Source of the DNA: Candidatus Nanopelagicales bacterium
Lineage (GTDB): Bacteria > Actinomycetota > Actinomycetes > S36-B12 > UBA5976
Reading direction: 5' to 3'
Length of the DNA: 36,184 nucleotides
Assembly (NCBI GenBank): GCA_023257525.1
Contig: JALRCB010000002.1
Span: 1-36,184 of the forward strand
Shown here: in pieces, positions 1,477 through 34,602 of the stretch
Layout of the letters: each line of letters starts with the position of its first letter
How positions within the stretch are numbered: the first letter of the stretch is position 1
Position numbers and translations under genes: made by a program
Notes under the pieces: model-generated
Database searches by the model: none
What the model saw: the letters and a program-made list of their open reading frames with translations, nothing else
What the model was told of the DNA's origin: nothing

Positions 1477-3278
1477 TGATGCGCGCTCTTGAAAAGGGGC
1501 GGAGCCTTGTCAGCCCGCTTGGCCCGTTCTTTGTTCGTTACGGGCTGGTTTTAGTTCTTTCTATGGGTATGGTCGTTTGTATTTACCTTGGTGATCGCTT
1601 CGAACGTGAATTTACGGCCAATTTAGAGCAGGGATTTCAGCAACGCGTTGAACTCGGAGATTTAGCATCGTCTGTTCATCAGCTTCGGAAAATACTTGAA
1701 TCACCACGGGCCTTAGACCCAGGGTTTGTAGGTGGTCTCGTTGAAAGGATGAAGGAAGTTGAGGTTAAGGCTAAGGCTCAAGTAGATGCCGGTCGCATAG
1801 GCGAAATCTCGCTACCCACAAAAGAGCTTACTGTAATCGTCGGTATGCAACAAGGATTTGAGAGGTTGTCTGCGAGCGCAGGGCAGGTTGAGCGAGCGCA
1901 TAGCTTAAAACTAGCAATAAAGCCCCCCGAATCAGTCGATGGACCAGCGCTAAAGCGAGTGGGGGGGCTTCTTGATGACTATGTCAATGCTGCGGGTGCC
2001 TTGCGCAACTCACGTAGTGCTTCCTCGGGGTTAACATCCCTGCAGCAAGCTACCATGGCACTGGGAGAGAATCTGATCTCTGCTACAGTGGAATCGCGCC
2101 GAAAAACGACAGCTCAGGCATGGAGAGATGTCTTATTCCTTCTTCCTGCAGAGCGAGGCGATCTAGTCGATAGACTCCTTGCCGATGGACGCATGCTTGA
2201 AGATCTACAGAATCAGCGCCTCCGCGCCTTGTCGCGCCTTGAGCAAGTCGCAGCAAAGATCGATAGTGCGGAACGTCTGCTGCTCCAAAGTCGTTCGTCA
2301 GGCGGATTACTAGTTGTCTCGACCATTCTTACCTGGAGTGGGGTACTGTGTGGATTGCTGGGAATATTATCTAACGTTATTCAGCTTATTAGGTTGAACC
2401 GCATCACGGGTCGATCTTCGCATGAATCCCTCGAGTTGCTTGTTCCGCGGAGTGTACTAGCGACAGAACAGCACGATAACGGGTATGCTAAGACGACCGA
2501 TAACTCGTTGAATCCGACTGCCTCGGAAGAAGAGCAACTAATGGCCTCCCGAATTGCCAACGAGATCGTGCGGAAAGGAGCACGCGGTAGCGATAGTGAA
2601 GCTTTCATTGATGTAGCGTCCGAGGCACATACCGTCGTTGAATCAAAGGTTCAAGCGAAGCAAATTGTTTCCCTTGAATCGGAACCAGTAGAGAGTGTGA
2701 CCTCTGGCTATTGGATAGCCTCTGGTTCGATGGCAGAGCGCCGGGTTGCACTTCTCGATAGGCAGTCGCTTCAGCTTGAGCAGCATGTTCGAGCAGTCAT
2801 GGCCGCGGCTGAGACTTTGGCGGGTAGGATTGACGTTGTTGAGCAGTCACTGCAGCTGGCGGCAGAGGTTGATAGCGTTAATTCGGTTCAGGAATTGAGT
2901 GGGTTTCGACGTCGCATGGAAGAGCTGCAGTCAATTGCTATGAACCTATCGCTTGAAGTCGGAAATGGGGAGGCTCGTGAATCGACCCTCGACGAACTAG
3001 AGCGATTCAGCGACGAGCTTGAGGGTATGTCCGAAGAAGCAAAGCGTATCGTCGCTACCCAATCTGAGGGTGCATATGATCGACGTATTAGGTTGTCACT
3101 TGACGAGGCGCGTCGCATGGCTGCGGCAGCTGACACGTTGAGAGAACGAACTGAGCTTCTACTTGATGACGCACAGCGGTTTCGCAGGCACAGTGAGGCA
3201 TTGATTCGAGGTATCCAGGAGGGCGCTGTAGCTGAGTTGCCAGCTTCATATGTGCGACAACGAAGTATTGATGGCTAA
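1476..3278 (+). CDS. Two-TM membrane protein with MCP-like topology (helical periplasmic domain plus cytoplasmic coiled coil); function unknown
   Basis: TM1 is FFVRYGLVLVLSMGMVVCIYL and TM2 is LLVVSTILTWSGVLCGLLGILSNVIQLI, separated by about 240 aa of helical sequence. The C-terminal part is about 290 aa of heptad-like, E/R/L-rich sequence. Segment LQSIAMNLSLEVGNGEARES..FSDELEGMSEEAKRIV only weakly resembles the MCP hairpin tip (IA.QTNLLALNAAIEAARAGE.GRGFAVVA.EVR.LAerS). Translationally coupled to the preceding CheW-like gene. Confidence 0.5.
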   Translation: MMRALEKGRSLVSPLGPFFVRYGLVLVLSMGMVVCIYLGDRFEREFTANLEQGFQQRVELGDLASSVHQLRKILESPRALDPGFVGGLVERMKEVEVKAKAQVDAGRIGEISLPTKELTVIVGMQQGFERLSASAGQVERAHSLKLAIKPPESVDGPALKRVGGLLDDYVNAAGALRNSRSASSGLTSLQQATMALGENLISATVESRRKTTAQAWRDVLFLLPAERGDLVDRLLADGRMLEDLQNQRLRALSRLEQVAAKIDSAERLLLQSRSSGGLLVVSTILTWSGVLCGLLGILSNVIQLIRLNRITGRSSHESLELLVPRSVLATEQHDNGYAKTTDNSLNPTASEEEQLMASRIANEIVRKGARGSDSEAFIDVASEAHTVVESKVQAKQIVSLESEPVESVTSGYWIASGSMAERRVALLDRQSLQLEQHVRAVMAAAETLAGRIDVVEQSLQLAAEVDSVNSVQELSGFRRRMEELQSIAMNLSLEVGNGEARESTLDELERFSDELEGMSEEAKRIVATQSEGAYDRRIRLSLDEARRMAAAADTLRERTELLLDDAQRFRRHSEALIRGIQEGAVAELPASYVRQRSIDG

Positions 3279-3289
3279 GTGATTGGTAG

Positions 3290-4651
3290 GTGGTCGTGGA
3301 CGATCCAAACGATGATTTGTTCCTAATCGACGCAGAACAAGCCGTCCAGGAAATGTTGCAATATGGCAAGGGAGAAGGAGAGTTTTCTGTCGAAAGGGTA
3401 ATCGCAACCTCTGATTACCTAGCGTCGCTTCTCTGGTCAATTGGACTCGCAGATCATGGCGAAGCTGTTGATACCTTGTCACGTCATTTGAAAGAACTCG
3501 ATGCTGTATCTTCAAGGCGGTTGGCAAGAGACCTCTCAAGCTTGGTGATCGAGCAAATTCAAGCGATCAAGGCCGGGGATTCTATGAGAGATCAATCAAT
3601 AGCCCTGGGCCAACTTAAGGCGAGATTTCAGGACGCTTTTCCTGAAATCTCCAGAGCAGCAAATGGTGGCCAGAGTCAACAGGATGTTTCACAACCTACA
3701 AAAACAGCGTCAGGCCTTGATGAAGAACTCATTCGAGACGCTGCCGCAGCACTGCATGCCGTTGACCATTTAGCGAGTCTTCTAGGGAAGCAAACACCCC
3801 TGCACCAAGACAATCGCGATGGGATCAATGGCGATTCTCTGGATATCCCGAATTCACGTGTTAGCAATTCAGTTGTTTGCGAAGAGCTAGAACTAAATGA
3901 GGGGAAGGTGGTGAAACCACTGGAGAGCGAAGCTTACTCTCAGCCATGGTCTAACCCTTCAAAAGGGTCGAGTGCCTCGACCTTTGGGGACAACACATAC
4001 ACTGTTGACGAATCATTTCGCAAAGCCGTTGCGTTTCAAGGAATGGAGCCATGGCGTCAAGGGTTTTTAGGCGTATTAGAGTCGATTGATCAGATCGATC
4101 GGGTCGAATTAAGCCGTTGCCTGCCTAATTTCTTAATGCTTCGAGACGATACTGATATCGCTATGAGTGCGACATTAGGTAGAGCTTTGTTTGACCTTTT
4201 TTCGGTGGCCACGGGCAGTTCAGGTTTGGTTGAAGCTTCGTCTTCAGGAAACACAATTTCGTTAACGATTGAATTTAAGGTCCTTCCAGTCGTACCACAA
4301 CTCGGTTTACGAGTGCAGAGTCTTGGTGGGCGAGTACACATCGACTATAAGTTAAATCGCCTGAGTCTTACGCTGCCTACTTCCCTGCGATTGGTTAGAC
4401 TTGTTCAAGTCAAGATCGGCGAGAGACGATTTGCCTTTTCTTGGGCACAATTCATTAGTCATCGAGAATATGGAGAAGGGAAGACTATAGAGTTGCTAAT
4501 CGGGGATCACAGCGAATCGATTGTCGTTGATAGCATGGAAAGTCCTGCTATAGCGATCCGATATGAACTTCCTCGTGAATTTTGGAAACGTGATCAATAC
4601 AAGGGGATTGCGCTGACTGATCAGGGTCAATTTATCCCGATTTATGGGTGA
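3290..4651 (+). CDS. CheA-like protein lacking kinase motifs (P4 remnant plus CheW-like P5 domain); putative pseudokinase or scaffold
   Basis: GTG start preceded by GGTAGG. VQSLGGRVHIDYKLNRLSLTLPTSLRLVRLVQVKIGERRFAFSW aligns by eye with the CheA P4/P5 junction (MGG.v.i.S..G.GTt..i.LPLTLAIldgl.VrVgde.yaiPl). IELLIGDHSESIVVDSM and YKGIALTDQGQFIPIY resemble the end of P5 (lLvVDellGq.qvVvK / isGATILGDGrValIlD). G-box glycines (GxGT) and DDGxG are not present: LNR and IEFKV occupy those places. The stop overlaps the flgA start by 8 nt. Confidence 0.5.
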   Translation: MVVDDPNDDLFLIDAEQAVQEMLQYGKGEGEFSVERVIATSDYLASLLWSIGLADHGEAVDTLSRHLKELDAVSSRRLARDLSSLVIEQIQAIKAGDSMRDQSIALGQLKARFQDAFPEISRAANGGQSQQDVSQPTKTASGLDEELIRDAAAALHAVDHLASLLGKQTPLHQDNRDGINGDSLDIPNSRVSNSVVCEELELNEGKVVKPLESEAYSQPWSNPSKGSSASTFGDNTYTVDESFRKAVAFQGMEPWRQGFLGVLESIDQIDRVELSRCLPNFLMLRDDTDIAMSATLGRALFDLFSVATGSSGLVEASSSGNTISLTIEFKVLPVVPQLGLRVQSLGGRVHIDYKLNRLSLTLPTSLRLVRLVQVKIGERRFAFSWAQFISHREYGEGKTIELLIGDHSESIVVDSMESPAIAIRYELPREFWKRDQYKGIALTDQGQFIPIYG

Positions 4652-11444: not shown

Positions 11445-11549
11445 TGATCGATGACTGATCTGCTAAACAAAAATTAAAAGGGGCCCGTTAACCAAAGCAT
11501 GGAACATCTAGAGTCTAGGTTTGGGGTGAAAAGGGCGAGCCCTACTTTT

Positions 11550-11557
11550 GGGGGGGG
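11550..11557. repeat. Homopolymeric G8 (C8 on the minus strand) tract in the flhA upstream region
   Basis: Direct reading: acttttGGGGGGGGtaag. It lies 106-113 nt upstream of the flhA start codon at 11444. Confidence 0.9.
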
Positions 11558-11580
11558 TAAGTTCTGCTACGCAAATGCGC

Positions 11581-11617
11581 TTGAAAATTTTGGATACAGG
11601 TCTAATCAAATTTTCAA
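11581..11617. repeat. Perfect 10-bp inverted repeat with a 17-nt spacer, upstream of flhA
   Basis: TTGAAAATTT (11581-11590) and AAATTTTCAA (11608-11617) are exact reverse complements. The site lies in the 294-bp gap between the flaG stop and the flhA start. Confidence 0.85.
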
Positions 11618-11671
11618 TACTCGCCGTAATACTGATATGGACGCTAATTTCGATGCAATTGGCACTAATGC

Positions 11672-11708
11672 AAAACCCGCCGGACCCATGGATAGGTTGG
11701 CGGGTTTT
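11672..11708 (-). terminator. Rho-independent terminator after fliC-flaG (potentially bidirectional)
   Basis: AAAACCCGCC (11672-11681) pairs with GGCGGGTTTT (11699-11708). The GC-rich stem is flanked by an A-run on one side and a T-run on the other, about 30 nt downstream of the flaG stop. The 17-nt loop is rather large. Confidence 0.6.
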
Positions 11709-11738
11709 ACTTGGCGCTATGACTTGACAGGCGAGCTA

Positions 11739-12149
11739 TCAAGCTTTTTTGTTGACAAGCAAACTTGCGAGGTAGTCGATAGTGCGAGCGAGTTCAACGA
11801 CTTCAGGGGCAGGAATTTGGCGGACAACCTCATTGGATTGAGAGTCCCTAACTACCATCACCGTCGAGTGACTGACATTATCGAATCTGATATCCAGGTT
11901 CCGATTCATAGAACTAGCGAAAGAGCGGATTTTCTCACCGGCAACTTCAACCGACTCTTTCGTGATTCTGGCGGACTCATGAACCGAGGGGGCTTTAGAA
12001 CTTCTTGCCTCCGTGATTCGAGCAGAAACCTGCTCGACCGACGGACCCCTCGATTGATGATCGGTAGATTGCTTGGAAACTTCGGCTTTCGAAGCAGGCG
12101 GACCCTGGCTAGGAACCGCCGTGCTCAAACTTACGGACGTGGTCATCAT
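11739..12149 (-). CDS. flaG: Flagellar protein FlaG
   Basis: The C-terminal pattern LDIRFDNVSHSTVMVVRDSQSNEVVRQIPAPEVVELARTI is characteristic of the FlaG family (l.f..de..g..vVkv.D..tgEviRqIP.ee.l). Immediately downstream of a flagellin gene. Confidence 0.8.
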   Translation of the reverse strand: MMTTSVSLSTAVPSQGPPASKAEVSKQSTDHQSRGPSVEQVSARITEARSSKAPSVHESARITKESVEVAGEKIRSFASSMNRNLDIRFDNVSHSTVMVVRDSQSNEVVRQIPAPEVVELARTIDYLASLLVNKKA

Positions 12150-12185
12150 AGCCTCCTAGCTAAGAATAGACTTTTATTAGGCCCT

Positions 12186-13085
12186 TTACTTCAAGAGCGC
12201 CAAGACTACGTTAGGCTGCGCGTTTGCTTGAGACAGCATAGCAGTAGCAGCTTGTTGGAGAATTTGGGTCTTAGTCAAATTCGCGGTTTCAGCTGCGTAA
12301 TCAGTATCAACAACCCGACTGTTGGCCGCGCTGAGGTTCTCATGAAGGGCAGTAAGGTTGGCAATGTTGTGGTTCAAGCGGGTTACGGTAGTTCCGAATT
12401 TAGCCCTAAGCGTCGCAACTTCTGTAAGGGCGGCATCTGCATAAGCGGAGTACGACGAAAACTGAGAAGTTGCGTTTATCTTACCAGTGCCATCGTCGTT
12501 GAAATAAGTGTCGTTGATTTCGCCTTCAGCAAGAATATTGGTGTAAAGCTTCGTGAATTCTTCGCTTTCTCCGACGCTCTGGAGATTTACCTTATTGATT
12601 TCTACTATCCCGATACCGGTAGTTGTGTTGAGTTCTGGACCGGTTTGAAAGGTAAGTGCGCCAGTAGAGGAAAGCAACTTATTGTTGTTAAATGTTGTTC
12701 TGTCGGAAATAGCGACGATTTCTTTCGCCAAATTTCCCATCTCAACCGAAAGATAGGCTCTTTGGTCGCTCGAGAGAGCGCCGTTCATGCCTTGAGTGGC
12801 AAGTTCTTTAAAACGTTGCAACATGCTAGAGATTTCTGCAAGAGCACCTTCAGCGGTCTGAGCAATACCAATCGCATCATTTGCATTTCTAATGGCTACG
12901 GAAGTGGTATTGATGCTAGCAGTGAGTTTTTGCGAAATTCCCATACCCGCAGCATCGTCTTGGGCGCGATTGATTCTCGACCCGCTAGACAATTTCTCGA
13001 ACTGGCCGCCCAGTTTATTTTGAGCATTAGTAAGGTAGCGCTGAGCGGAAATCGACGCCATGTTAGTCATGAGTACGGATGCCAT
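12186..13085 (-). CDS. fliC: Flagellin, short 299-aa form
   Basis: Conserved flagellin N-terminus (NMASISAQRYLTNAQNKLGGQFEKLSSGSRINRAQDDAAGMGIS...AIRNANDAIGIAQTAEGAL) and C-terminus (SRVVDTDYAAETANLTKTQILQQAATAMLSQANAQPNVVLALLK). Confidence 0.95.
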   Translation of the reverse strand: MASVLMTNMASISAQRYLTNAQNKLGGQFEKLSSGSRINRAQDDAAGMGISQKLTASINTTSVAIRNANDAIGIAQTAEGALAEISSMLQRFKELATQGMNGALSSDQRAYLSVEMGNLAKEIVAISDRTTFNNNKLLSSTGALTFQTGPELNTTTGIGIVEINKVNLQSVGESEEFTKLYTNILAEGEINDTYFNDDGTGKINATSQFSSYSAYADAALTEVATLRAKFGTTVTRLNHNIANLTALHENLSAANSRVVDTDYAAETANLTKTQILQQAATAMLSQANAQPNVVLALLK

Positions 13086-13142
13086 GAATTTCTCCAGTGA
13101 GTTAAACGTTTTGACTGTTTGGGCGATTGCCCCCTGTACTGG

Positions 13143-16548: not shown

Positions 16549-17697
16549 ATGAATCAGATACCTTCGGTTGGTTCGGATGCAGCTATAGCACCTCGGACAG
16601 GCTCGGGAAGCCCACAATCGTCGCCGCAGCAACGAGCAGATGCAGTAGCAACGGTCGTTTCTGACAGTATTTCGGCCCGGGCTGACCCTGGGGTCATGCT
16701 CAAGGTTGTTCCGCCGCCTCAAACGAGAGAGGGGGGCGTCGCTGTACAGCGTGATGAGGCAACGAACAATGCACTGCTCGCGCTTTTGCAACTGCTGAGA
16801 GACCCCGGCCGAGTTGAAGGCGAATCGGTTGACTCCGCTACCGACGCGGACCAAGCGATTGCAGCGCGATTAGCGCGATTCTTAGCTAATTTACCTCCTG
16901 ATGTACAAAAGGCAATCGAGTCAGCGAAGACGCCTGAACTCGCTAAGCTCATTCGTCTCTCGGCGATGACCGCGCCTGGGATTAGGGAGGCACCTGCAGT
17001 CCTTGCAGGTCGATCGGACCCTCTCGCAACAGACCCAATGCTTGGCATGGAAGAGCTTCTTAGGGATATCGAATCATCACCCGTGTTTAAACTGACTGCA
17101 AAACTAAGAGACCTTGTAAGCACGGAAAGCGTGTCAACGCGCTTAGGTGAGTCACCTGCACGTTTCGAAGCGAATCAGACACCGAGGACCGAAGCTGGCG
17201 CCTATTCCCAAGCTGCAAACGGCACAACTCAGGGTTTTTTAAATTTGCTCAACGAGGCTGCGAATTCTGCTCAGCCTTCTTACCAGGATAATAGTCCTCG
17301 GCTCGCTGTGGGAGCTGAAATAGCCCAGAATTTTGACGCGGGTGATCTTCAGCAGGCCGTCAAGGACGGCCTTAGGCTCTTGATGGATGGCCGTCTTATT
17401 TGGCAAGGTGAAATTGTTCCCGGAAGCCCGCTGCGATTTGAACGAAGTGATGCTTGGGGAACATCTGCTGAATCCCCCGGGGGTATGGAGAAGGGCACGG
17501 TACTGAAAATTCAACTAGAACATCCGGAATTGGGTCGGATTGAGTTGAGAGCACTTGGACTCGGGGGGCAAGTAAACATTCGGCTTTTTGGCTCAGAGCC
17601 CGCAATTTCAATGATGCTCGGGGCGCTACCTAAGATGAATGACCGCTTGAAGCAGGTTGGTCTATCAGGCACCCAGATCTCTGTAGAATCCCACTGA
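16549..17697 (+). CDS. FliK-like hook-length-control domain protein (second copy in the window)
   Basis: The C-terminal segment VLKIQLEHPELGRIELRALGLGGQVNIRLFGSEPAISMMLGALPKMNDRLKQVGLSG matches the FliK C-terminal (Flg_hook) pattern l.L.P.eLG.v.v.l....g.v.v.f......r..l...l..Lr..L...Gl. The N-terminal part is low-complexity and Pro/Ala/Ser-rich. Confidence 0.7.
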   Translation: MNQIPSVGSDAAIAPRTGSGSPQSSPQQRADAVATVVSDSISARADPGVMLKVVPPPQTREGGVAVQRDEATNNALLALLQLLRDPGRVEGESVDSATDADQAIAARLARFLANLPPDVQKAIESAKTPELAKLIRLSAMTAPGIREAPAVLAGRSDPLATDPMLGMEELLRDIESSPVFKLTAKLRDLVSTESVSTRLGESPARFEANQTPRTEAGAYSQAANGTTQGFLNLLNEAANSAQPSYQDNSPRLAVGAEIAQNFDAGDLQQAVKDGLRLLMDGRLIWQGEIVPGSPLRFERSDAWGTSAESPGGMEKGTVLKIQLEHPELGRIELRALGLGGQVNIRLFGSEPAISMMLGALPKMNDRLKQVGLSGTQISVESH

Positions 17698-21289: not shown

Positions 21290-21388
21290 CGACTTACATT
21301 CGTGCTGTACTTCGGGTCGGCAAAATTTGCCCCCCGGCAAAACCTGCTGAATAATTCGGTTGAACTTTACAACGAGACTTATAGAACT

Positions 21389-23308
21389 ATGGCCGATGTC
21401 AACCCCGGACTTGCGGCGCAAGCTGAAAATGGTGCGACTGTTATTGGTGTGAATCCAAATGCTATCGTGCAAGAGGAGGTTGCACCGCCCAAAGTCGAGC
21501 GAATGAATCGCCCAGGTGGGCCTAAGACGCTTGCTGATCGCTGGCAGGAGGTCGTTGGCCGCGTTAGTGAACTGCCTCCGCTTCGAAAGGTGCTTCTTGC
21601 CGTATCGATTTTGCTCGTTGCAGTGACGGTTGTTTTGGTAGCTGCCTCCGGGGATAGCAAGGATGACTACAAGGTACTTTTTTCGAATGTGAACGACAAA
21701 GACGGTGCTGCGATCGTGGCAGCATTGGAGCAAATGAAAGTTCCACACCGATTTACAGAGGGTGGTGGAGCTATCTTGGTCCCGGCTGACAAGGTTTACG
21801 ACGCAAGGTTGAAACTCGCAGGACAAGGTCTTCCCAAAGCGGGTAACGTCGGCTTCGAGCTTCTTGAGAATCAAAAGCTTGGGACGTCTCAGTTCGTTGA
21901 GCAGGTGAATTACCAACGAGCCCTTGAATCAGAGTTATCTGGTTCGATCAAGACACTGGCGCAAGTTCGAGATGCAAGAGTTCATCTCGCGATACCTAAA
22001 ACCTCAGCCTTCTTGCGAGATCAGCCCAAACCTACCGCATCTGTGGTGCTTACGCTACATCCGGGGCGAGTCGTTGATGATCAGCAGGTCACGGCGATTA
22101 CGCACCTTGTTTCCTCTTCGATACCTCAGCTAGCGCCATCCATGGTGACTGTTGTTGACAGCGATGGGGGGCTTCTTGCTCCAAATGCTTCGAGGGGTGC
22201 GGCAGCTGGAATGGACGCTGCTCAGATTAAGTATGTCGGTGAGGTTGAAAACCAAGTTTCAAGACGGATCGTTACAATTCTCGAGCCTGTAACTGGTCGG
22301 GACAACGTGCGGGCTCAAGTAGCTGTCGATGTCGATTTCACTCAAAGCGAGCGCGCCGAGGAAATCTTCAAGCCGAACTCAGGGCAAAACCCAGCAAGTA
22401 TTCGGTCACAACAAAATCTCGAAGCGAGCGGTCCGGTTACGAGCGCTGGGGGCATTCCAGGCGCGCTAAGCAATCAACCACCGCAAGGCGGACAGGCGCC
22501 TGTCGATGGCCAACCGGGTCAGGGTCAGGCGCAACCTCCTGGTACACAGAGCCCGGTATCGACGAATGCAAACAGAAAAGAGCAGACGGTTAACTACGAA
22601 GTTGACAGAGCGATTCAGACGGTTAGAGGACCGCGGGCATCTGTGAAGCGCGTTTCTAGTGCGGTTATTGTGAATTACAAAAAGACAGTTGACGCGGATG
22701 GAAACGTAAAGGAAACACCATATTCGCAGCAAGAGCTCCAGCAGATGACGGCGCTTGTTCGAGATGCGATGGGTTTTTCCCAGCAAAGGGGGGACTCGGT
22801 TTCGGTTGTGAGCATTCCGTTTTCTCCACCCGTTATTGATGAGCCGCCGTTTTGGAAACAGGCAACCTTTGCAAGCGTGATGAAGGAGTTTTTCAAGTTT
22901 TTGATTATTGCAACTGTGCTCGGCTTAGTAACCGTTTTCTTGGTACGACCAATTCTCTTTCCGCCTCCACCTAAGGTTGTTGAGGAAGAGCAGCGGATCG
23001 AGGAAGAATTTGATGAACGTGTTAAAGCAGAATTGCAGGCCATGTCGCCCGCCGCACGAGAGAAACGTCGACTTGAGCTTGAGCTGGAGCGTGAACGTAG
23101 GCGTTTGCAAGAAGAAGAAGAGCGCCAACGCCTCGAGGAAGAACGACGGATTCTCGAGGACAAACGCAAGCGTGAGGAGGAGGAAAAGGCGGCTGAATAC
23201 GAAGAGCTGCTAGCTTACGCCAAGGAGTTTGTCCAAAAAGATCCGCGTGTCGTCGCAGCGATATTCAAACAATGGTTACAAGAAGATGTGGAAAAAGGTT
23301 TGGCTTGA
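21389..23308 (+). CDS. fliF: Flagellar MS-ring protein FliF
   Basis: Matches seen: YKVLFSNVNDKDGAAIVAALEQMKVPHRF..GGGAILVPADKVYDARLKLAGQGLP, VQILEN-type LENQKLGTSQF, and AVIVNYK. Two TM helices. The C-terminal DPRVVAAIFKQWLQED is the usual FliG-binding tail. ATG at 21389 (MADVNPG) is preferred over the track start at 21302. Confidence 0.95.
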   Translation: MADVNPGLAAQAENGATVIGVNPNAIVQEEVAPPKVERMNRPGGPKTLADRWQEVVGRVSELPPLRKVLLAVSILLVAVTVVLVAASGDSKDDYKVLFSNVNDKDGAAIVAALEQMKVPHRFTEGGGAILVPADKVYDARLKLAGQGLPKAGNVGFELLENQKLGTSQFVEQVNYQRALESELSGSIKTLAQVRDARVHLAIPKTSAFLRDQPKPTASVVLTLHPGRVVDDQQVTAITHLVSSSIPQLAPSMVTVVDSDGGLLAPNASRGAAAGMDAAQIKYVGEVENQVSRRIVTILEPVTGRDNVRAQVAVDVDFTQSERAEEIFKPNSGQNPASIRSQQNLEASGPVTSAGGIPGALSNQPPQGGQAPVDGQPGQGQAQPPGTQSPVSTNANRKEQTVNYEVDRAIQTVRGPRASVKRVSSAVIVNYKKTVDADGNVKETPYSQQELQQMTALVRDAMGFSQQRGDSVSVVSIPFSPPVIDEPPFWKQATFASVMKEFFKFLIIATVLGLVTVFLVRPILFPPPPKVVEEEQRIEEEFDERVKAELQAMSPAAREKRRLELELERERRRLQEEEERQRLEEERRILEDKRKREEEEKAAEYEELLAYAKEFVQKDPRVVAAIFKQWLQEDVEKGLA

Positions 23309-23360
23309 CCTTAGGTAGGCCATTCAAGTTGAGCGCTTCATTCGATCCCGAGGCACATGC

Positions 23361-24053
23361 ATGACAAGGTTGGCTGCAGAGCGCTGGTTCCCTCCAAGTT
23401 TTGATCCTCCAATTCCGGAGCCAGAACCCGAAATTGTATGGCCGACGGTTGAGGAAATTGAAGCGATTCGTGAGGCTGCTCGTAGGGAGGGCTTTGATGC
23501 AGGTCGCCAAGAGGGGTACGAGCGAGGTGTTGCTGAGGGCTTGACTCAAGGTTTTGAGCAAGGGCTAAATGAGGGACGTGAACAGGCATACGTTGAGCAT
23601 GTGGCCAAGATCGCCGAGTTGACCAGTGCACTTGAGGCTTTCATTCATGAGTTAAAGGATCTGCCAGACGTGATCCTCGAGCCTATCACTGACTTAGCCT
23701 GGTCAATTGCGCAGCGACTTTCACTTTCAGATCATATCGATAGAGGCCCATTTTTAGGCGCGGTTGAAGAAGCTTTGATGCGTCTTCCGTCTCCAGGTGA
23801 AAATTTGTTACTCCGAGTTCCGCCTGCCATGAGAATTATTTGGGACGAGTTTCTGGAGCGCGCGGGATTACCATTCAAAGTCGACGTGTTGGCGGACGCT
23901 GAACAGCATAGTGGTGCATTTATAGAAGTTGGTGGAAGCCGGCTTGATGTTGGGCCCGAGGCGAGAAGAGCGCTTGTATTGATGGCAATGGGGCTATTGC
24001 CGCGAGAATCCGACGATACAAGTGGGGCGGTTGACCTTGAGCAGTCGAGCTGA
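23361..24053 (+). CDS. fliH: Flagellar export ATPase regulator FliH
   Basis: Repeat-like charged helix (EEIEAIREAARREGFDAGRQEGYERGVAEGLTQGFEQGLNEGREQA) followed by a C-terminal domain (LLLRVPPA...GAFIEVGGSRLDVGPEAR). Immediately upstream of fliI and overlapping it. Confidence 0.85.
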   Translation: MTRLAAERWFPPSFDPPIPEPEPEIVWPTVEEIEAIREAARREGFDAGRQEGYERGVAEGLTQGFEQGLNEGREQAYVEHVAKIAELTSALEAFIHELKDLPDVILEPITDLAWSIAQRLSLSDHIDRGPFLGAVEEALMRLPSPGENLLLRVPPAMRIIWDEFLERAGLPFKVDVLADAEQHSGAFIEVGGSRLDVGPEARRALVLMAMGLLPRESDDTSGAVDLEQSS

Positions 24054-25957: not shown

Positions 25958-27226
25958 ATGATTGCCATCAAGTCTTCACCAACGCAGTCGATGAAGCAGG
26001 AAAACCCCGCCGTTGGTACAGAAAAATCTGCCGAACAGCGGAATGATCTAGCCTTTGAATTGCTTCTTGGCCTGATGGGGGGGCGTTTTCAGGGAGATTG
26101 TGATGGCGCCCAGCTACCCTCAGATGAATTGGTTGCCGACGGCAAACGGGTAACCGATGTTGGCTTGGTAACGGCAAGTATTGCCGGCCCGCAGTCGTTT
26201 CAGGTTTCGACGCCAACTGCGGTGGGGCATGACCTAACCGATTCAGAGGCTCTCGGCGGTGTTAGTGCGCTACTTGATGCCTCCGTAGCCGCGCTTAGAC
26301 GGCAGGGGGATGATCCTATGGTAGGAGCACAGCTCGGGTTGGAAGCTGCGCGAAAGGCGTTTGCAGCGCTGAATGCTCAGGCGGACCAAAATCTTCTAAC
26401 TGCTAGGCTTGCTGCAGCAGTTAGGGGTGACCGTGCCGCGCTTCAAGAGTTGATTTCAGATGGGTTTCTTGCCAAGCTCAATCCCGTGGCAGTCGTTCCT
26501 CGAGATTTTGCGATTGAACAGCATCTTCAGGAATCAATCCAGGGAGCGCTTTCTGGGCGGATAGTCGACGGGCAGATACTGCAAGCACAAGTGCTTGAAA
26601 TTGATGGCAGTACTGCCCCTCTTCAGGCTGATGAAATGAAAACTCAGGGTTCCTACAATCTGTACTCGGGGGCTGACTTATCGCCTCTCAATGACGGCGA
26701 TGCTGATGCTTCTAAGTCGCTTGATATATTTCAGCGAGAAGGCGATCTACCACTACTCTATGTGCAGGACTCTCGAGCCCCCTCAAATAGTCAAAGCCAG
26801 GGTGTAGCAGGCATTGTCAGCTCGCAGCCAATGATTGAGCCAACCGTAAATTGGTTGTTGTCTCAACAAGGTGGAGGGGCTACGATTGACCTCACGCCAC
26901 CGGATTTAGGTCACGTGCGCGTTGAATTGAAGCTTGATTCAGCGGGTCAGCATGCAACGCTTGTGGTGCATCCTTCCTCTGATGCTGCGAAAGCTTCAAT
27001 CGAGCAATCACTTTCCCGTTTGGTTGACGTTTTTGCTGCATCGGGTATGCAGTTATCAGTATCGGTTGAAAGTGGGCAATCCGGACTTGGGTTTGCAAGA
27101 GAGCGTGAAAGGCCTCCGAGAGACTTGGGATTGGATCGGGTAAGCTCCTTAGAGCAGTCGAGGGATTTTGGTCTTGCGATGCGGCGTTCTACGCTGAGCG
27201 AGTCAGGGCTAAGCTTATACGTATAG
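25958..27226 (+). CDS. fliK: Flagellar hook-length control protein FliK
   Basis: The C-terminal IDLTPPDLGHVRVELKLDSAGQHATLVVHPSSDAAKASIEQSLSRLVDVFAASGMQLSVSVESGQ matches the FliK C-terminal domain pattern. Canonical position after fliJ. Confidence 0.82.
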   Translation: MIAIKSSPTQSMKQENPAVGTEKSAEQRNDLAFELLLGLMGGRFQGDCDGAQLPSDELVADGKRVTDVGLVTASIAGPQSFQVSTPTAVGHDLTDSEALGGVSALLDASVAALRRQGDDPMVGAQLGLEAARKAFAALNAQADQNLLTARLAAAVRGDRAALQELISDGFLAKLNPVAVVPRDFAIEQHLQESIQGALSGRIVDGQILQAQVLEIDGSTAPLQADEMKTQGSYNLYSGADLSPLNDGDADASKSLDIFQREGDLPLLYVQDSRAPSNSQSQGVAGIVSSQPMIEPTVNWLLSQQGGGATIDLTPPDLGHVRVELKLDSAGQHATLVVHPSSDAAKASIEQSLSRLVDVFAASGMQLSVSVESGQSGLGFARERERPPRDLGLDRVSSLEQSRDFGLAMRRSTLSESGLSLYV

Positions 27227-29563: not shown

Positions 29564-30610
29564 ATGGAAATTTCGAGCTCGAGCTTGATATTCTTATTTA
29601 TTGTCACTTTGATTGCGTTAGCTATAGGTTTTGTTGCGCGGCTTTGGAGACGTTCAACCCAGCAGAGCCCATCTCTTCGATTGATCAGTTCCCTTCAGGT
29701 TGGCCAAAAAGAGCGTTTGGTCGAGGTCCTCAATGGGGATGAGGTTTTATTGCTTGGTATTACATCACAGCAAATTACAGTTATTGATCGTCGTAAGGCC
29801 AGTGAGTTAGAGCGAACTCTCAAAGCTGAACGATTGCGTTCCCAACCATTCAACGTCAGCGCTCTATCAGCAACCGTAGTTGTCCTAGTAGCGTTTGCCT
29901 GTCTGTTCCCGTCTGACATCCTTGCGCAAAGCTTGCCGCTTTTTGAGTCGGTACCAGGCAAGGGCGGGGTAACAAGTTATTCGGTCCCTGTTCAAACGGT
30001 TTTGTTGCTGACTGCGCTATCTTTTTTGCCCTCGATGCTGATGCTCATGACGAGCTTCACAAGAATTCTTATTGTACTTTCGCTGCTGAGACAGGCAATG
30101 GGATTAGTTACCACGCCGCCGAACGCGGTATTGGTAGGGTTAGCCTTATTTGTTACTGCTGCAGTGATGGCTCCAGTCGCCGACAAGGTCTACGGAGATG
30201 CTTGGCAGCCCTATAGTGCAGGGAGAATTGGTTTCCAGGAAGCCGTTGATAAGGGTATCGAGCCGGTTAAAGCGTTTATGCTTCGACAAACCCGCGCGGA
30301 CGATTTGAATCTTTTTATTCGATTGTCTGGCAAAACTTATGCTAAACCCGAGGATGTTCCTCTAACCACGGTGATACCAGCCTTCGCAATTAGTGAAATT
30401 AGAACAGCATTTTTGATAGGTTTTGTAATTTATCTGCCTTTCCTTGCAATAGATTTTGCTGTTGCGAGCATACTCACAGCTCTCGGCATGGTTATGGTTT
30501 CACCGATCACTTTCTCGTTGCCATTAAAGCTCATAGTTTTTGTACTTGCTGATGGATGGGCGATGCTGATCGGTGGGTTGGTAGAGAGTTTCCGGATGGT
30601 GGCCACTTAA
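29564..30610 (+). CDS. fliP: FliO-FliP encoded as one continuous ORF (export-gate protein FliP with an N-terminal FliO-like module)
   Basis: Residues 1 to about 95 are FliO-like: a single TM (LIFLFIVTLIALAIGFVARLW), then LRLISSLQVGQKERLVEVLNGDEVLLLGITSQQITVI. The following signal-peptide-like stretch is ATVVVLVAFACLFPSDILA-QS. Canonical FliP follows (VQTVLLLTALSFLPSMLMLMTSFTRILIVLSLLRQAMG..PPN.VLVGLALFVT..VMAPV). There is no in-frame stop between the two parts. An in-frame TTG lies at 29834. Confidence 0.9.
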   Translation: MEISSSSLIFLFIVTLIALAIGFVARLWRRSTQQSPSLRLISSLQVGQKERLVEVLNGDEVLLLGITSQQITVIDRRKASELERTLKAERLRSQPFNVSALSATVVVLVAFACLFPSDILAQSLPLFESVPGKGGVTSYSVPVQTVLLLTALSFLPSMLMLMTSFTRILIVLSLLRQAMGLVTTPPNAVLVGLALFVTAAVMAPVADKVYGDAWQPYSAGRIGFQEAVDKGIEPVKAFMLRQTRADDLNLFIRLSGKTYAKPEDVPLTTVIPAFAISEIRTAFLIGFVIYLPFLAIDFAVASILTALGMVMVSPITFSLPLKLIVFVLADGWAMLIGGLVESFRMVAT

Positions 30611-30945: not shown

Positions 30946-31737
30946 ATGATTTCGATTCCGCAATCTCTGATAGAAACCGCTTTGCTTCCAGGTTTGTTAG
31001 CTGCAACCAGGATCGTAGGGCTTTTGCTGGCCGCGCCGTTCTTCGCACTGCAAACGATTCCTCAGCGATTTAGAATTGGATTGGCTCTTATTATTGCTTT
31101 TGGCATTCCTCTCGAAATCGGTGCTCTAACGGCAATTTCAATAGCAGGATCCAGTGCAGGCTTTTTTTTACTCTCAGCAACTGAGCTGCTTATCGGTCTA
31201 GCGATGGGCTGGTTAGTGAGAGTCGGTATGATTGTCTTTGATGTCGCTGCTGAAATAATCAGTATTCAAACAGGGCTCTCATTCGCGTCCCAGTACAATC
31301 CAGATCAAGCATTACCCTCCGGCGTTGTAGGCAGTTTGTTCGGTTTGATCGGACTGGCACTCATGTTTGTATTGAATCTTCATTTGGTGATAATTGAGAT
31401 AATATTTGATTCGTTTAGAAGTTTGCCTCCAGGCCGATGGCCGACTATGTTTAATATTTCATCTGTTTTAAGTGTCTTTGCTGGTTCGTTTGGGATTGGT
31501 TTGCTTTTGGCACTTCCTTTTATTGCCATTAATCTCGTTGTAATGGCTGCTCAAGGGTTTTTGGGCAGAACAAGTCCTCAAATGAATTTGTTTTCGATCG
31601 GCTTTGCTCTTACGATTCCTATCGGAGTTTTTTTGATCTATGTTTTGTTGCCGGTTTTTCCAGAAGCTCTCCAGCGTTCACAAGAAGGCGTTTATGGATT
31701 ATTGCGTCAGGCCTTGAGCTTAACCCGAGGAAATTAA
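30946..31737 (+). CDS. fliR: Flagellar export-gate protein FliR
   Basis: 263-aa polytopic membrane protein with the pattern LLAATRIVGLLLAAPFF...ELLIGLAMGWLVRVGMIVFDVAAEIISIQTGLSFA. Canonical position after fliQ. Confidence 0.93.
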   Translation: MISIPQSLIETALLPGLLAATRIVGLLLAAPFFALQTIPQRFRIGLALIIAFGIPLEIGALTAISIAGSSAGFFLLSATELLIGLAMGWLVRVGMIVFDVAAEIISIQTGLSFASQYNPDQALPSGVVGSLFGLIGLALMFVLNLHLVIIEIIFDSFRSLPPGRWPTMFNISSVLSVFAGSFGIGLLLALPFIAINLVVMAAQGFLGRTSPQMNLFSIGFALTIPIGVFLIYVLLPVFPEALQRSQEGVYGLLRQALSLTRGN

Positions 31738-31738: not shown

Positions 31739-32629
31739 ATGAAGATTTTTCGACTTACCCTCCTCATGGCCGTCTTCATTTCTCTTGCAGGATGTTTAGA
31801 AAGCTTACCCAAGACTGTGTCTTCTGGAGATTTTCCCTCTTTGCCATTATCTCCAACGCTTAAGGATAGGAATGCAGCACTTGCGCGTGCTTGGGATCAG
31901 GCTAGTCTCACATGTAGGAGTCAATATAGTTCTCGCGGTAGTTACTGTGAGCAGCTGAAAGTGGAAGGTGAGTTTCTGAGTTGTACTGCGACTCGACTAA
32001 CCGACGCTGCCGAAAGGTTGAAATATCCTTCGCCTGATTTGATTCGAGTTTGGCATAATTGTGTAATGACAACTGCAGGTCTCCTGAAGGACGGTTATTA
32101 TTTAACGAAGCTGGACCTAGAGCGTCGGGTTGCTAGTTGCCAGTCTCGCTTAGATCCGGAGCCAGAGTTTCCGATAAGGCAGACTGGATGGTTGGGTCCT
32201 CTGCTGAGTATGATTTCCAATGACGACAAAGAGCCCTTAAGAGCTGTTATGCCAGGTGACTTTGGCGTTGCGAACTCCAGAATAGCTCTACCAACATGTG
32301 AAGCGAGGTTTAAGGCAGCCGCTGCGACAGCTAGCCCGTTGGCTGTTGGGCAAATTCCGAAGGAACAAGCGAATATCGTGTCACCACCCCAGCAAGCTCC
32401 TGTGTCGCCTAATGTGGCGATTGAGGACGAAGGTTCAAAGAAATCTAGTCAGAGGAAAGTCGTTAATACCCGGGATACAAAGGCAGTTTCAGCCAGACCA
32501 GCGTCAGCAGCACAGAGCATTCCGCATAACTTGGATCCACGTAATCAACAGGGAGTGGGCGCCAAGTACTGTCCTATACCAGGTGCTTGTGGTCCTTCGG
32601 TGCCAGTTGATGCAGTAAAGAGGCCGTAA
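31739..32629 (+). CDS. Cys-rich lipoprotein of unknown function, translationally coupled to fliR
   Basis: Lipobox signal peptide MKIFRLTLLMAVFISLAG-C. Eight further Cys residues are spread through the mature part. C-terminal Pro/Ser/Ala/Gln-rich tail. The ATG is one nt after the fliR stop (TAATATG). Confidence 0.7.
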   Translation: MKIFRLTLLMAVFISLAGCLESLPKTVSSGDFPSLPLSPTLKDRNAALARAWDQASLTCRSQYSSRGSYCEQLKVEGEFLSCTATRLTDAAERLKYPSPDLIRVWHNCVMTTAGLLKDGYYLTKLDLERRVASCQSRLDPEPEFPIRQTGWLGPLLSMISNDDKEPLRAVMPGDFGVANSRIALPTCEARFKAAAATASPLAVGQIPKEQANIVSPPQQAPVSPNVAIEDEGSKKSSQRKVVNTRDTKAVSARPASAAQSIPHNLDPRNQQGVGAKYCPIPGACGPSVPVDAVKRP

Positions 32630-32641: not shown

Positions 32642-34021
32642 ATGACTTTAAAGGGGCTTTTATTGCCACTGAATTGTTTTTTTTGGGCTCTGACATCGCC
32701 CGTGTTTTTTTCTTTATTTGTTGCACTTGGACTTCAATTTGAAGTTCTCGCTGCCGATGCGGACAAGGCCGCTCCAACGTCTGGTGCGCCAATCGTTAAG
32801 CAGCAGATGACCGATATTAAGTCATCGATAGCTCTTCCTGTTGACAAGAAGCCAACAAATGCCGAATCTCTGAAGCTTAACGCTGCTTCAACCAACGTCC
32901 GCAAGGATGTTGATTTGACTTCTGCAAAGCCTGTTAATCCTTCAACGCCAATCCCTCCTGATTCAAAGGTCGAACCGTCAATTACGAGCTTAGAGCTTCG
33001 TGTAAGGGCTCTTTTGGAGGGCAAGTTAGGCACGGATGGGGAGCTTATCCTGCGTGCCGACGGTGATTTGACGGGGGTGTCAACGAGTAAGCCTTCCGGC
33101 GCCTTTGCGGGGCAGGGTGGGTCGATCTCTTCCATTGAATCGGCGGATCAAGGAAAGCGTTCTAAGGCGATACAAGGAGTAGTGATTCAATCGACTGTTG
33201 GAGAACCTCGCGCGAGGACGGCTGGCGCGGCGGACCCGGCAGTCTCGTCTATGAAGTCAAATCACCCTAGGCAGGCTGTATCTTCTAGAGAGGATCGCAA
33301 GAGCGATAAAACATCGTTATTAAACGGAGGGGCCAGATGGACTTGGAGTGGGCCAAGTGGCCCTCAGAACTGGGGTAGGATCGACCCAGATTTTGCCCAG
33401 TGTTCGAGTGGGAAATTCCAATCACCGATAGTGATTAGGTCCTCAGATGTATTGGACAGTTCGATGTTGTTACCCGAGTTTCAATGGGAACCGGCTAGCT
33501 TTCGAGCGGAAAAGGATCGCGGCGTATTGAAGTTCAATTTGCTCACCAATTCGCGCTTAAAGTTTCGTGGACTAGAATGGAGATTACATCATCTTGAATT
33601 CCGAGTTCCTGGGGAACACTTCTTAGATGATCAGGGGTACGACGCATCAGTCATCCTGCACTACCAATCGAATCAACGTCTTTTGAATCTGTCGGTACCG
33701 ATTGTTGGCAAGAATGATTCGGCTGCGAATGCAGCATTTCGGGTCCTGATGCAGAGAATGCCTCTTGGAGAAGACGATTTAGTGTCTACGAATGACCGTT
33801 TCGTCAATCTTGCCGATTTCATACCCAATCCAAGTGGTTCTGCCTTTCTTTACCATGGATCGTTAACACTCCCGCCTTGTACTGAAGGTGTGTTGCATGT
33901 TGTTCTGAGGAATCCCTTGGTAATTTCTCTCGGACAGTTTCTGGAATTGAAGTCGTTTGCTCCACTGGGAGTGAGACCACCTCAAAATATTGAAAAGCGA
34001 CCGGTGATGAAGCTTAGCTAG
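32642..34021 (+). CDS. Secreted protein with a C-terminal alpha-carbonic-anhydrase-like domain lacking two zinc-ligand histidines (probable pseudoenzyme)
   Basis: Signal peptide (...FSLFVALGLQFEVLA-AD), then a linker of about 190 aa rich in Ser/Pro/Lys. The alpha-CA hallmarks are WSGPSGPQNWG, C..GKFQSPIVI, VPGEH and YHGSLTLPPCTEGV. LHHLEFRVPGEH occupies the place of L.QFHFH.PSEH, so E319 and R321 replace the zinc ligands. Starts 12 nt after the lipoprotein gene. Confidence 0.8.
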   Translation: MTLKGLLLPLNCFFWALTSPVFFSLFVALGLQFEVLAADADKAAPTSGAPIVKQQMTDIKSSIALPVDKKPTNAESLKLNAASTNVRKDVDLTSAKPVNPSTPIPPDSKVEPSITSLELRVRALLEGKLGTDGELILRADGDLTGVSTSKPSGAFAGQGGSISSIESADQGKRSKAIQGVVIQSTVGEPRARTAGAADPAVSSMKSNHPRQAVSSREDRKSDKTSLLNGGARWTWSGPSGPQNWGRIDPDFAQCSSGKFQSPIVIRSSDVLDSSMLLPEFQWEPASFRAEKDRGVLKFNLLTNSRLKFRGLEWRLHHLEFRVPGEHFLDDQGYDASVILHYQSNQRLLNLSVPIVGKNDSAANAAFRVLMQRMPLGEDDLVSTNDRFVNLADFIPNPSGSAFLYHGSLTLPPCTEGVLHVVLRNPLVISLGQFLELKSFAPLGVRPPQNIEKRPVMKLS

Positions 34022-34144
34022 ACCCGGCATAAATTGCCGGAAGTGACGGCAATCGTCGTCGGGAAATGGGCGGGTCGGATAATGACGATAGTTGGTTTAA
34101 CAAAAACTGACCGTTTGTCAATCTAAATCAACCACCGGTCTTTT

Positions 34145-34160
34145 TGGTACAGTGCTTGCT
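34145..34160 (+). promoter_or_regulatory. Sigma-54 promoter for flgBCDE
   Basis: TGGTAC-agtgc-TTGCT versus the consensus TGGYAC-N5-TTGCW. GG at 34146-34147 and GC at 34158-34159 give exact GG-N10-GC spacing. RBS AGGAGG at 34172-34177 and flgB ATG at 34183. Confidence 0.75.
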
Positions 34161-34182: not shown

Positions 34183-34602
34183 ATGGACAGAGTTCCAGAG
34201 TTCGATCCGTTATATTTCTCTGAAGCTGCACTTCGGATGCGTTCTTATCGCCAGCAAATACTCTCGTCGAATATGGCGAACGTGGATACGCCTGGATACA
34301 AAGCACGGGATGTTTTGTTTAGTCAGGCTTTGCGGGAGCAACTTGAGGGGGTGAGTTACTCAAATGCACTCCCGATGTCAGCGACAAGTGAACGTCACTA
34401 CCGCGTCGGTGGGTCTTTGCCAGGCGCTCCTGCCCTTCTTTATCGGATTCCGATGCAGCCTACCCTCGATGGGAATACTGTCGACGTTGAAACGGAGAGG
34501 GCGCATTTTGCAGATAACGCTGTTAGAACAGAGGCGGCAATGACATTGTTGAATGGCGTGCTCGCATCACGGAGAATGGCGCTTTCAGGGAATAACTCAT
34601 GA
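34183..34602 (+). CDS. flgB: Flagellar proximal rod protein FlgB
   Basis: LRMRSYRQQILSSNMANVDTPGYKARDV and DGNTVDVETERAHFADNAVRTEAAMTLLNG are canonical FlgB motifs. ATG at 34183 with a strong RBS. The track start at 34144 would overlap the promoter. Confidence 0.93.
   Translation: MDRVPEFDPLYFSEAALRMRSYRQQILSSNMANVDTPGYKARDVLFSQALREQLEGVSYSNALPMSATSERHYRVGGSLPGAPALLYRIPMQPTLDGNTVDVETERAHFADNAVRTEAAMTLLNGVLASRRMALSGNNS

Follow-up and report, generated by a model that had tools for sequence, protein, structure and literature searches.

A carbonic anhydrase-like protein lacking the zinc-binding histidines is encoded among flagellar genes of freshwater bacteria and is probably a non-catalytic flagellar accessory

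Introduction

In animals, CA VIII, CA X, CA XI and the carbonic anhydrase (CA)-like domains of RPTP gamma and RPTP zeta possess the alpha-CA fold, have one to three of the zinc-ligand histidines replaced (an arginine stands in place of H94 in CA VIII), are non-catalytic and serve as protein-binding modules. Flagella, for their part, have lineage-specific periplasmic accessories: MotX, MotY, FlgT, FlgO and FlgP of Vibrio and PflA and PflB of Campylobacter are Sec-exported or lipoproteins, are encoded in or near flagellar clusters and are limited to particular lineages. We know of no CA fold among these named accessories. The present analysis concerns a stretch of 36,184 nt (contig JALRCB010000002.1, positions 1 to 36,184, assembly GCA_023257525.1, deposited as Candidatus Nanopelagicales bacterium), hereafter the window, in which a gene for a predicted secreted protein with an alpha-CA domain, here termed pseudo-CA, is located between the flagellar genes fliR and flgB.

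Direct binding of CA10 to neurexin is described in one source (PMC8024894). In Campylobacter jejuni, the HtrA homologue PflC, which lacks the catalytic triad, forms the medial disk of the flagellar motor, where it was placed by in situ cryo-electron microscopy (PMC12222027). A full-text literature search yielded no paper joining carbonic anhydrase, flagella and pseudoenzymes, and a review of bacterial CAs did not mention alpha-class pseudoenzymes. The literature searched contained no description of a bacterial alpha-class pseudo-CA, nor of a protein with the CA fold in connection with a flagellar operon, in agreement with an earlier note on the window, made from the sequence alone, which knew of no described flagellar component with a CA fold.

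Results

The C-terminal part of pseudo-CA has an alpha-CA fold

The pseudo-CA protein consists of a Sec signal peptide, a mostly disordered region of about 190 aa and a C-terminal alpha-CA domain. Its features are listed below; hCA II stands for human CA II.

32642..34021, plus strand: pseudo-CA gene, open reading frame (ORF) of 459 aa plus stop codon
32642..32752, plus strand: predicted Sec signal peptide, aa 1-37, cleavage probably after VLA (hydropathy and sequence)
32828..32851, plus strand: IALPVDKK, aa 63-70, short conserved motif in the disordered region
32990..33052, plus strand: helix-strand motif LELRVRALLEGKLGTDGELIL, aa 117-137, holding the sole ordered N-terminal element of the AlphaFold2 model
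33335..34018, plus strand: alpha-CA-fold domain, aa 232-459 (Pfam, PDB sequences, AlphaFold2 and Foldseek)
33401..33403, plus strand: C254, hCA II position 23
33878-33880, plus strand: C413, hCA II position 203
aa 240-245: GPQNWG
aa 257-265: GKFQSPIVI
aa 291-294: KDRG
aa 317-321: HLEFR
aa 322-326: VPGEH
aa 338-341: ILHY
aa 404-417: YHGSLTLPPCTEGV

That the C-terminal stretch of about 230 aa is an alpha-CA domain is beyond reasonable doubt, both the homology and the fold of this class (PF00194) being found in the window protein. The Pfam match scored 53.6 bits against a curated cutoff of 27 (E-value 3.3e-14), and 66 PDB sequences matched the protein, the best being the Thiomicrospira alpha-CA 4xz5 (E-value 4.6e-22). 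AlphaFold2, run on a family alignment of 11 sequences, gave a model with a predicted local distance difference test (pLDDT) score of 80-95 over residues ~250-459, and Foldseek aligned this model with bacterial alpha-CAs at template modelling (TM) scores of 0.82-0.86, normalised to the target. Every alpha-CA landmark motif quoted in the earlier note was found in its place.

The signal peptide proposed ahead of the CA domain was likewise predicted by hydropathy and sequence in agreement, with hydrophobic residues at aa 5-35 and VLA-AD at residues 35-39. Orthologues carry canonical signal peptides as well, for example ...SAEA-AQ in P0003 and ...GFA-AD in P0024 (related proteins and loci are designated here by P and L numbers). 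The mature window protein contains exactly two cysteines, C254 and C413, and both columns are invariant in the family. They occupy hCA II positions 23 and 203, which we take to be the cysteines forming the alpha-CA disulfide, and this is consistent with periplasmic folding.

The zinc ligands and the proton shuttle are replaced

The catalytic site was aligned in three independent ways, by pairwise phmmer alignment to solved enzymes, by MAFFT together with human CA II and relatives whose zinc site is intact, and by hmmalign with 252 CA domains. All three methods were concordant on the positions of the catalytic residues in the window protein (hCA II numbering first):

H94 to E319: zinc ligand replaced; codon GAA at 33596-33598, with E319-F320-R321 at 33596..33604, plus strand
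H96 to R321: zinc ligand replaced; within 33596..33604, plus strand
H119 to I338: third zinc ligand replaced; 33653..33655, plus strand
H64 to G294: proton shuttle replaced, within KDRG; 33521..33523, plus strand
E117 to S336: three alignments
E106 to E325: kept, three alignments
T199 to T409: kept, three alignments
T200 to L410: alignments to hCA II numbering

The alignments reproduced E319 and R321 as the equivalents of His94 and His96, the substitution of the proton-shuttle region NNGH by KDRG (the H64 column holds G294) and the serine in place of the Glu ahead of the third ligand, all of which had been read from the sequence before. The proposal that the third His is present in ILHY after a one-residue shift did not hold. 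H340 aligned to position 121 or 122 and never to 119 by any method, the 119 column being occupied by I338 in the window protein and by H, Q, A, I or L in its relatives, and restoration of the third zinc ligand by an alignment shift was ruled out. Rigorous alignment combined with the structural model, the check that the earlier note had called for, gave an alpha-CA fold in which the His triad was not restored. The window protein thus lacks both the zinc triad H94/H96/H119 of an alpha-CA enzyme (EC 4.2.1.1) and its His64 NNGH proton shuttle; the E106/T199 gatekeeper pair is present as E325 and T409, and in the family as E106 and mostly S199. The replacement of H94, H96 and H119 by E, R and I together with the loss of H64 strongly implies that the domain cannot hold a catalytic zinc and is a pseudoenzyme. 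Arginine at position 96 would probably fill the former metal site and pair with E106 and E/Q94, resulting in a stable remodelled pocket.

The loss is shared by a family of freshwater proteins

A word-indexed protein search revealed two near relatives of the window protein, and an exhaustive HMMER search with a three-sequence profile against 1.84 billion representatives added nine full-length matches, N-terminal region included. A metagenome scan probed with gene X, the gene directly upstream of pseudo-CA, yielded 24 further CA-like ORFs, and H94 and H96 were absent in 24/24. After removal of sequences more than 90% identical, the family comprised 26 non-redundant members from freshwater "Betaproteobacteria bacterium" metagenome-assembled genomes (MAGs). 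H94 and H96 are lost in every member, with Q (24) or E (2) at position 94 and R (24) or Y (2) at position 96. H119 is kept in 19 of the 26 and lost in seven, the window protein among them. Position 117 is S, A or T and position 64 is P, G or W. The CA-related pseudoenzyme pattern recognised earlier in the single sequence therefore extends to the family, in which the proton shuttle is missing along with two or three of the zinc ligands; the alpha-CA fold, the loss of at least one zinc ligand and the purifying selection described below are those of a pseudoenzyme of the CA-related protein (CARP) kind.

Neighbour joining of 245 CA domains placed the family in a single clade of 16 tips; the sister of this clade was P0110, whose three ligand positions read E, R and Y. 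Although this is a rough tree in which degenerate sequences may have been drawn together by long-branch attraction, it suggests that the zinc-less family is monophyletic. Positions that once lined the cavity vary less than the domain as a whole (column entropy 1.05 versus an average of 1.57), which indicates that after its remodelling the pocket was maintained and did not drift.

Many other zinc-less alpha-CA-like domains were encountered in metagenomes (P0013, P0016, P0029, P0031, P0042, P0088, P0155, P0079, P0119 and P0143). Among them are giant proteins, such as P0013 with 3007 aa, in which several CA repeats are without zinc-ligand histidines, and small lipoproteins whose ligand positions read E/Q-R-Q. 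In databases, some members of the pseudo-CA family are labelled "carbonic anhydrase" (JGI), and pseudo-CA and X are labelled "hypothetical protein" (NCBI).

The pseudo-CA gene keeps its place between fliR and flgB

The following features surround the pseudo-CA gene:

30946..31737, plus strand: fliR (export gate), PF01311, 177.6 bits; its stop codon lies 1 nt before the X start
31739..32629, plus strand: gene X, novel lipoprotein of 296 aa with lipobox LAGC, directly upstream of pseudo-CA
34145..34160, plus strand: sigma-54-type -24/-12 element TGGTACAGTGCTTGCT, TGGTAC-N5-TTGCT, upstream of flgB
34183..34602, plus strand: flgB (proximal rod), PF00460, first gene of the next operon

The gaps are 1 nt between fliR and X and 12 nt between X and pseudo-CA, and a ribosome-binding site (AAGGGG) precedes pseudo-CA. 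No promoter-like or convincing terminator-like signal was found inside the fliR-X-pseudo-CA stretch. The TGGTACAGTGCTTGCT element is the sole exact sigma-54-type match in the window (0.14 expected by chance), and such an element lies at most 70 nt from flgB in 19 of 25 distinct related loci, the distant L016 included. The short gaps and the downstream flgB promoter suggest that pseudo-CA is the last gene of the export-gate operon (fliL...fliR-X). The earlier description of the gene as operonic with the export gate and directly upstream of a sigma-54-type flgB promoter is borne out by the gaps and by the conservation of the promoter; membership in a flagellar operon is conserved across relatives, co-transcription being predicted from sequence. 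A terminator after the pseudo-CA gene was also considered and is unsupported, the hairpin at this place being weak (z = -1.7).

A conserved box CCGTTTGTCG (variants CCRTTYGTCG) lies at 34108-34118, just upstream of the sigma-54-type flgB promoter, and recurs in most lineages at the equivalent position (L001, L012 and L021-L040), possibly as a regulator or enhancer-related site.

The order fliR-X-pseudo-CA-flgB-flgC-flgD was found in the window and in eight further loci:

L001 and L003: P0003 lineage, gene order kept
L011 (NCBI MAG GCA_002342145.1): P0009, gene order kept
L008 and L010: P0024 and P0156, gene order kept
L012 and L013: P0017 and P0021, the most degenerate subclades, gene order kept
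L016: P0110, a higher-GC lineage, gene order kept; FlgB ~60% identical by eye

In the scan probed with X, a CA domain directly followed X in 24/24 loci that reach it (L035 shows the N-terminal part), flgB came next in 20/20 loci extending further, and flgC and flgD followed where the contig reaches them; seven other loci end at or shortly after X. The contigs of P0018 and of P0079, another zinc-less CA-like protein, are too short to show gene context. Conservation beside flagellar genes, on which the earlier note had made its reading depend, was thus observed in every checkable relative, at identities as low as 29-37% and also in a lineage further away. The nearest (best-scoring) zinc-intact relative, P0044, is encoded among miaA, mutL, amiC, tsaE and queG with no flagellar genes, and this housekeeping context indicates that the flagellar linkage goes with the zinc-less clade.

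The carriers form a tight group by FlhA, with 81-86% identity among relatives and then a drop to 66% or less. The species-representative genome scan used patterns specific to one subclade. Plasmids and chromids scanned for a cultured carrier contained no X, and for pseudo-CA only generic CAs at 30% identity or less. The GC content of the pseudo-CA gene matches that of the neighbouring genes, and recent horizontal transfer was rejected in view of this lack of a compositional anomaly. The exact window protein is present in 260 blocks of the assembly collection, which indicates an abundant host.

Three observations concern the assemblies themselves. L003 and L004 (JBILLS010000074.1 and JBILWC010000044.1) are near-identical flagellar contigs with the P0003 variant which were binned into incompatible taxa, a "Nanopelagicales" (actinobacterial) and a "Steroidobacteraceae" MAG, so that at least one of them is mis-binned. 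None of the contigs with the identical pseudo-CA (260 blocks) falls in the class above 50 kb, and contigs with identical neighbouring proteins reach at most ~52 kb. A related FlhA is located on a 552-kb contig; the flagellar cluster may sit in a hard-to-assemble or variable region.

The lipoprotein X is the constant neighbour of pseudo-CA

X adjoins pseudo-CA in every locus examined and is its obligate, co-conserved partner gene, a point absent from the earlier note. Members of the X family have ~295 aa, and searches against Pfam, NCBIfam and PDB sequences gave no match. The protein contains a conserved domain of ~170 aa with six invariant cysteines, followed by a variable Pro/Ala/Ser/Lys-rich linker, and ends in an invariant peptide, CPIPGACGP(S/T)VPxDAVKRP, at the end of the variable disordered tail. 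An AlphaFold2 model from a shallow alignment of 9 sequences showed a four-helix bundle at residues 41-138 (pLDDT 73-92) and then a disordered tail; a Foldseek search with this model returned nothing significant (best E-value 0.28). Position +2 is occupied by Leu and not by Asp, and by the Escherichia coli sorting rule X is therefore predicted to be anchored, probably, in the outer membrane.

The pseudo-CA gene evolves fast under purifying selection

Pseudo-CA is the fastest-evolving gene of the cluster, which had not been noted before. Identities of the orthologues in the compared loci to the window protein, and mean pairwise distances among 17 non-redundant loci, were as follows:

FliN: identity 98-99%
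FliM: identity 95-96%
FlgC: identity 86-96%, mean pairwise distance 0.08
FlgB: identity 78-89%, mean pairwise distance 0.10
FliR: identity 75-83%, mean pairwise distance 0.21
FlgD: mean pairwise distance 0.30
X: identity 51-62%, mean pairwise distance 0.40
FliK: identity 31-43%
pseudo-CA: identity 30-37%, mean pairwise distance 0.53 (CA domain only)

Synonymous sites between the lineages are saturated (proportion of synonymous differences, pS, ~0.8), which means that the lineages are not very close strains and that the core flagellar proteins are far more constrained. The ratio of nonsynonymous to synonymous substitution rates (dN/dS) was measured in the two pairs that were close enough. For the whole pseudo-CA gene it was 0.10 and 0.23, with 0.06-0.16 in the CA domain and 0.16-0.26 in the N-terminal half, compared with 0.15 for X, 0.08 for FlgD, about 0-0.01 for FlgB and FlgC and 0.21 for FliK. 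Despite ~65% amino-acid divergence, the ORF is intact in all lineages at 360-510 aa. These results demonstrated that the pseudo-CA gene is functional but loosely constrained, much like that of the secreted hook-length ruler FliK.

The disordered N-terminal region carries conserved motifs

The earlier note had described the region ahead of the CA domain as a linker of about 190 aa rich in Ser/Pro/Lys. The length was right, whereas the composition of residues 38-231 (S 13%, A 12%, K 8%, G 8%, P 7%) shows that Ser and Ala exceed Pro, and the conserved short motifs speak against a plain linker. In the AlphaFold2 model residues 1-240 are disordered save one helix at 116-129. In one subclade, IALPV(D/E)KK lies downstream of the signal peptide, and the equivalents of IALPVDKK in P0003, P0009 and P0017 read IALPVEKK, IPLPVEKK or IQLPVESK; the other subclade has KPxIxKPxDxL and GRPINDV motifs. 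The LELRVRALLEGKLGTDGELIL block is invariant among close relatives (A1, A3), and its strict pattern matched 22 of 24 further family ORFs.

The consensus of this main motif is LExxVRxLLExKLGxDGEhhL, and a similar motif occurs in zinc-intact relatives. Several of these, including P0044, P0049, P0051, P0062, P0087 and P0093, share the overall layout of the window protein: a signal peptide, a low-complexity segment, a similar helix-strand motif, more low-complexity sequence and the CA domain. This equal layout suggests that the tethered architecture is older than the loss of catalysis.

A 133-aa antisense ORF (32734-33135, minus strand) overlaps the low-complexity N-terminal coding region and is most likely spurious. 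Tandem repeats and Rfam families were searched for in the pseudo-CA region and none were found.

The window is a flagellar regulon island

The whole window constitutes a flagellar regulon island. Its first part contains cheW-like, flgA, flgM, fliA, flhF, flhA, fliC, fliD, fliS and fliE genes and an flrBC-like two-component pair; its second part contains fliF, H, I, J, K, L, M and N, a fliO-fliP fusion, fliQ, fliR, X, pseudo-CA and flgB, C and D. Longer contigs with an identical pseudo-CA run on through flgE to flgL and motA. Among the ORFs scanned in the window and in L005, a near-complete flagellar cluster of ~50 kb, neither fliG nor flhB was seen, which is unusual.

Several genes of the island have features of their own. 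FliF has 668 aa with ~95 extra N-terminal residues and is directly followed by fliH (21302-24053). FliO and FliP are fused in one 348-aa ORF (29564-30610, plus strand; PF04347 and PF00813), and the fusion is present in all related loci. A second FliK-like ORF of 382 aa (16549-17697, plus strand) exists besides fliK at 25958-27226; its Flg_hook domain scored 28.3 bits, just below the cutoff of 29.8. Four large ORFs on the plus strand, 27-1115, 1476-3278, 3290-4651 and 11499-13100 (362, 600, 453 and 533 aa), had no Pfam or NCBIfam match above threshold and may be further lineage-specific flagellar genes.

Discussion

Proposed role and alternative explanations

Taken together, the fold, the lost zinc site and the gene context suggest that an old enzyme was probably recycled as a non-catalytic flagellar accessory. 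The gene would be transcribed together with the export-gate genes, as the spacing and the promoter motif indicate. Its product is predicted to be exported by Sec, to form its disulfide in the periplasm and to fold without zinc, and the alignments strongly imply that it would have no CO2-hydration activity. Together with X it may act at the basal body as a scaffold or spacer, or as an assembly factor, in which the CA head would be a protein- or ligand-binding module and the short motifs of the tether docking sites. Judging from gene context, we favour, with modest confidence, the reading that X and pseudo-CA serve the flagellar basal body as a non-catalytic periplasmic accessory peculiar to their lineage. 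That the two are a physical part of the motor, in which they jointly build a periplasmic structure not seen before (a ring, cage or tether, for example), is a more tentative proposal which we rate below even chances.

Several observations weigh against a flagellar role. The flagellar link of pseudo-CA is one of gene context alone, and no relative by fold could be recognised for X that would connect it with the motor. The main N-terminal motif also occurs in active, non-flagellar relatives and is hence not a flagellum-specific adaptation. The fastest rate in the cluster fits a loosely constrained accessory, but it would also fit a gene of marginal importance. A mirror-tree test of X against pseudo-CA gave a partial r of 0.57 which none of 2000 permutations reached; control gene pairs gave 0.35-0.65, a span that includes this value, and the test does not discriminate. 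Moreover, the gene context of zinc-intact CAs comes from a single relative, P0044, and the narrowness of the carrier clade means that the conserved gene order may partly reflect common descent.

These points bear most directly on the alternative that pseudo-CA is a passenger, that is, a non-catalytic periplasmic protein unrelated to motility which was inserted once, with X, at the fliR/flgB junction and was kept by descent. The gap in FlhA identity from 81-86% to 66% or less, the mean pairwise distance of 0.53 compared with 0.08-0.10 for FlgC and FlgB, the lack of a specific co-evolution signal between X and pseudo-CA and the presence of the ancestral architecture in non-flagellar active CAs all agree with it. 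However, the gene is intact in the same slot at every checkable locus, including the distant higher-GC lineage of L016, spacers as short as 1 nt and 12 nt imply a transcript shared with the export-gate genes, with translation probably coupled as well, and the saturation of synonymous sites (pS ~0.8) left ample time for loss or relocation, neither of which was seen. We therefore regard a passenger as unlikely, though deserving of serious weight. It is harder still to see the protein as a decaying remnant of an enzyme gene without function. The rapid evolution and the lost catalytic site would suit decay, but dN/dS of 0.06-0.26 contradicts it, as do ORFs intact at 360-510 aa in all lineages, the invariant motifs and cysteine pair and the occurrence of the exact protein in 260 assembly blocks; a pseudogene was ruled out by the selection analysis and the intact ORFs, and we give a remnant next to no credence.

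Two further alternatives concern the pocket. A still-active CA with alternative metal ligands, for instance E319 and H340, would explain why E106 and T199, which orient the zinc-bound hydroxide, are kept in the window protein, but it is barely conceivable given that other residues stand in for the H64 shuttle and for each of the three His ligands, that R321 brings a positive charge into the metal site and that position 119 differs by subclade (H, Q, A, I or L), as would not be expected of a conserved metal centre. In a small-ligand sensor, the remodelled pocket (Q/E94, R96, E106, S117, H119 and S/T199) would bind bicarbonate, CO2 or another anion without turnover and so modulate motor assembly or the motor itself. 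As such a sensor would have it, conservation is higher at the cavity positions than in the remaining domain, and an arginine is conserved at the former metal position; yet a salt bridge between R96 and E106 that stabilises the fold explains the conservation equally well, the pocket is not uniform in the family (the window protein lacks H119 and has L at position 200), and there is no signalling or output domain. CO2 or bicarbonate sensing, raised in the earlier note, is thus unsupported for a pocket without a metal site, and we consider a sensor improbable.

If X and pseudo-CA do build such a structure of the motor, in an abundant, uncultured betaproteobacterial lineage of fresh water, pseudo-CA would be the first flagellar component known to have a CA fold and, with PflC/HtrA as the earlier case, a second and independent periplasmic enzyme recruited to the architecture of the motor. 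A flagellar role as such, if true, would extend the known folds of lineage-specific motor accessories by one and would make X and pseudo-CA a two-gene module of an environmentally abundant group. The lack of the zinc ligands also corrects a database annotation ("carbonic anhydrase" in JGI), and estimates of carbon-concentrating capacity in freshwater metagenomes would come out too high if this family were counted among the CAs.

Comparison with known systems

The active bacterial alpha-CAs of Thiomicrospira (4xz5), Sulfurihydrogenibium (4g7a and 4x5s), Neisseria (1kop) and Helicobacter (4ygf) have the same fold as the window protein, at the TM scores given above. Active relatives of betaproteobacterial type (P0044, P0049, P0087 and P0093) have a signal peptide like that of the window protein, cysteines occupy hCA II positions 23 and 203 in the window protein and in all aligned active bacterial relatives, and active relatives from P0044 to P0128 also bear an N-terminal extension with a similar helix-strand motif. 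Unlike the window protein, active alpha-CAs keep QFHFH, H119 and NNGH. With an active ancestor type carrying the same N-terminal module surviving in related bacteria, this would, if the flagellar role is true, be a clean co-option of an enzyme as a scaffold.

The animal CARPs and RPTP gamma and zeta resemble the window protein in their alpha-CA fold with lost zinc ligands, and PDB chains of RPTP gamma, RPTP zeta and a CARP gave weak partial sequence matches to it. The window family differs in being bacterial and periplasmic, in its long disordered N-terminal tether with motifs, in its place in a flagellar operon with a lipoprotein partner and in its substitutions Q/E94 and R96. It nests among bacterial sequences and not in the animal clade of CARP VIII, X and XI and the RPTP CA domains. 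Its nearest relatives being bacterial alpha-CAs, the family appears to have arisen independently of the animal CARPs and is not their orthologue.

Pseudo-CA has no sequence or fold relationship to the periplasmic accessories of Vibrio and Campylobacter named in the Introduction. PflC has a serine protease and PDZ fold and not that of an alpha-CA, and its place in the motor has been shown, whereas a flagellar role of pseudo-CA is deduced from its gene neighbourhood. Both belong to periplasmic enzyme families, both have atrophied catalytic residues, and as a lineage-specific accessory of the motor PflC provides a precedent for the co-option proposed here.

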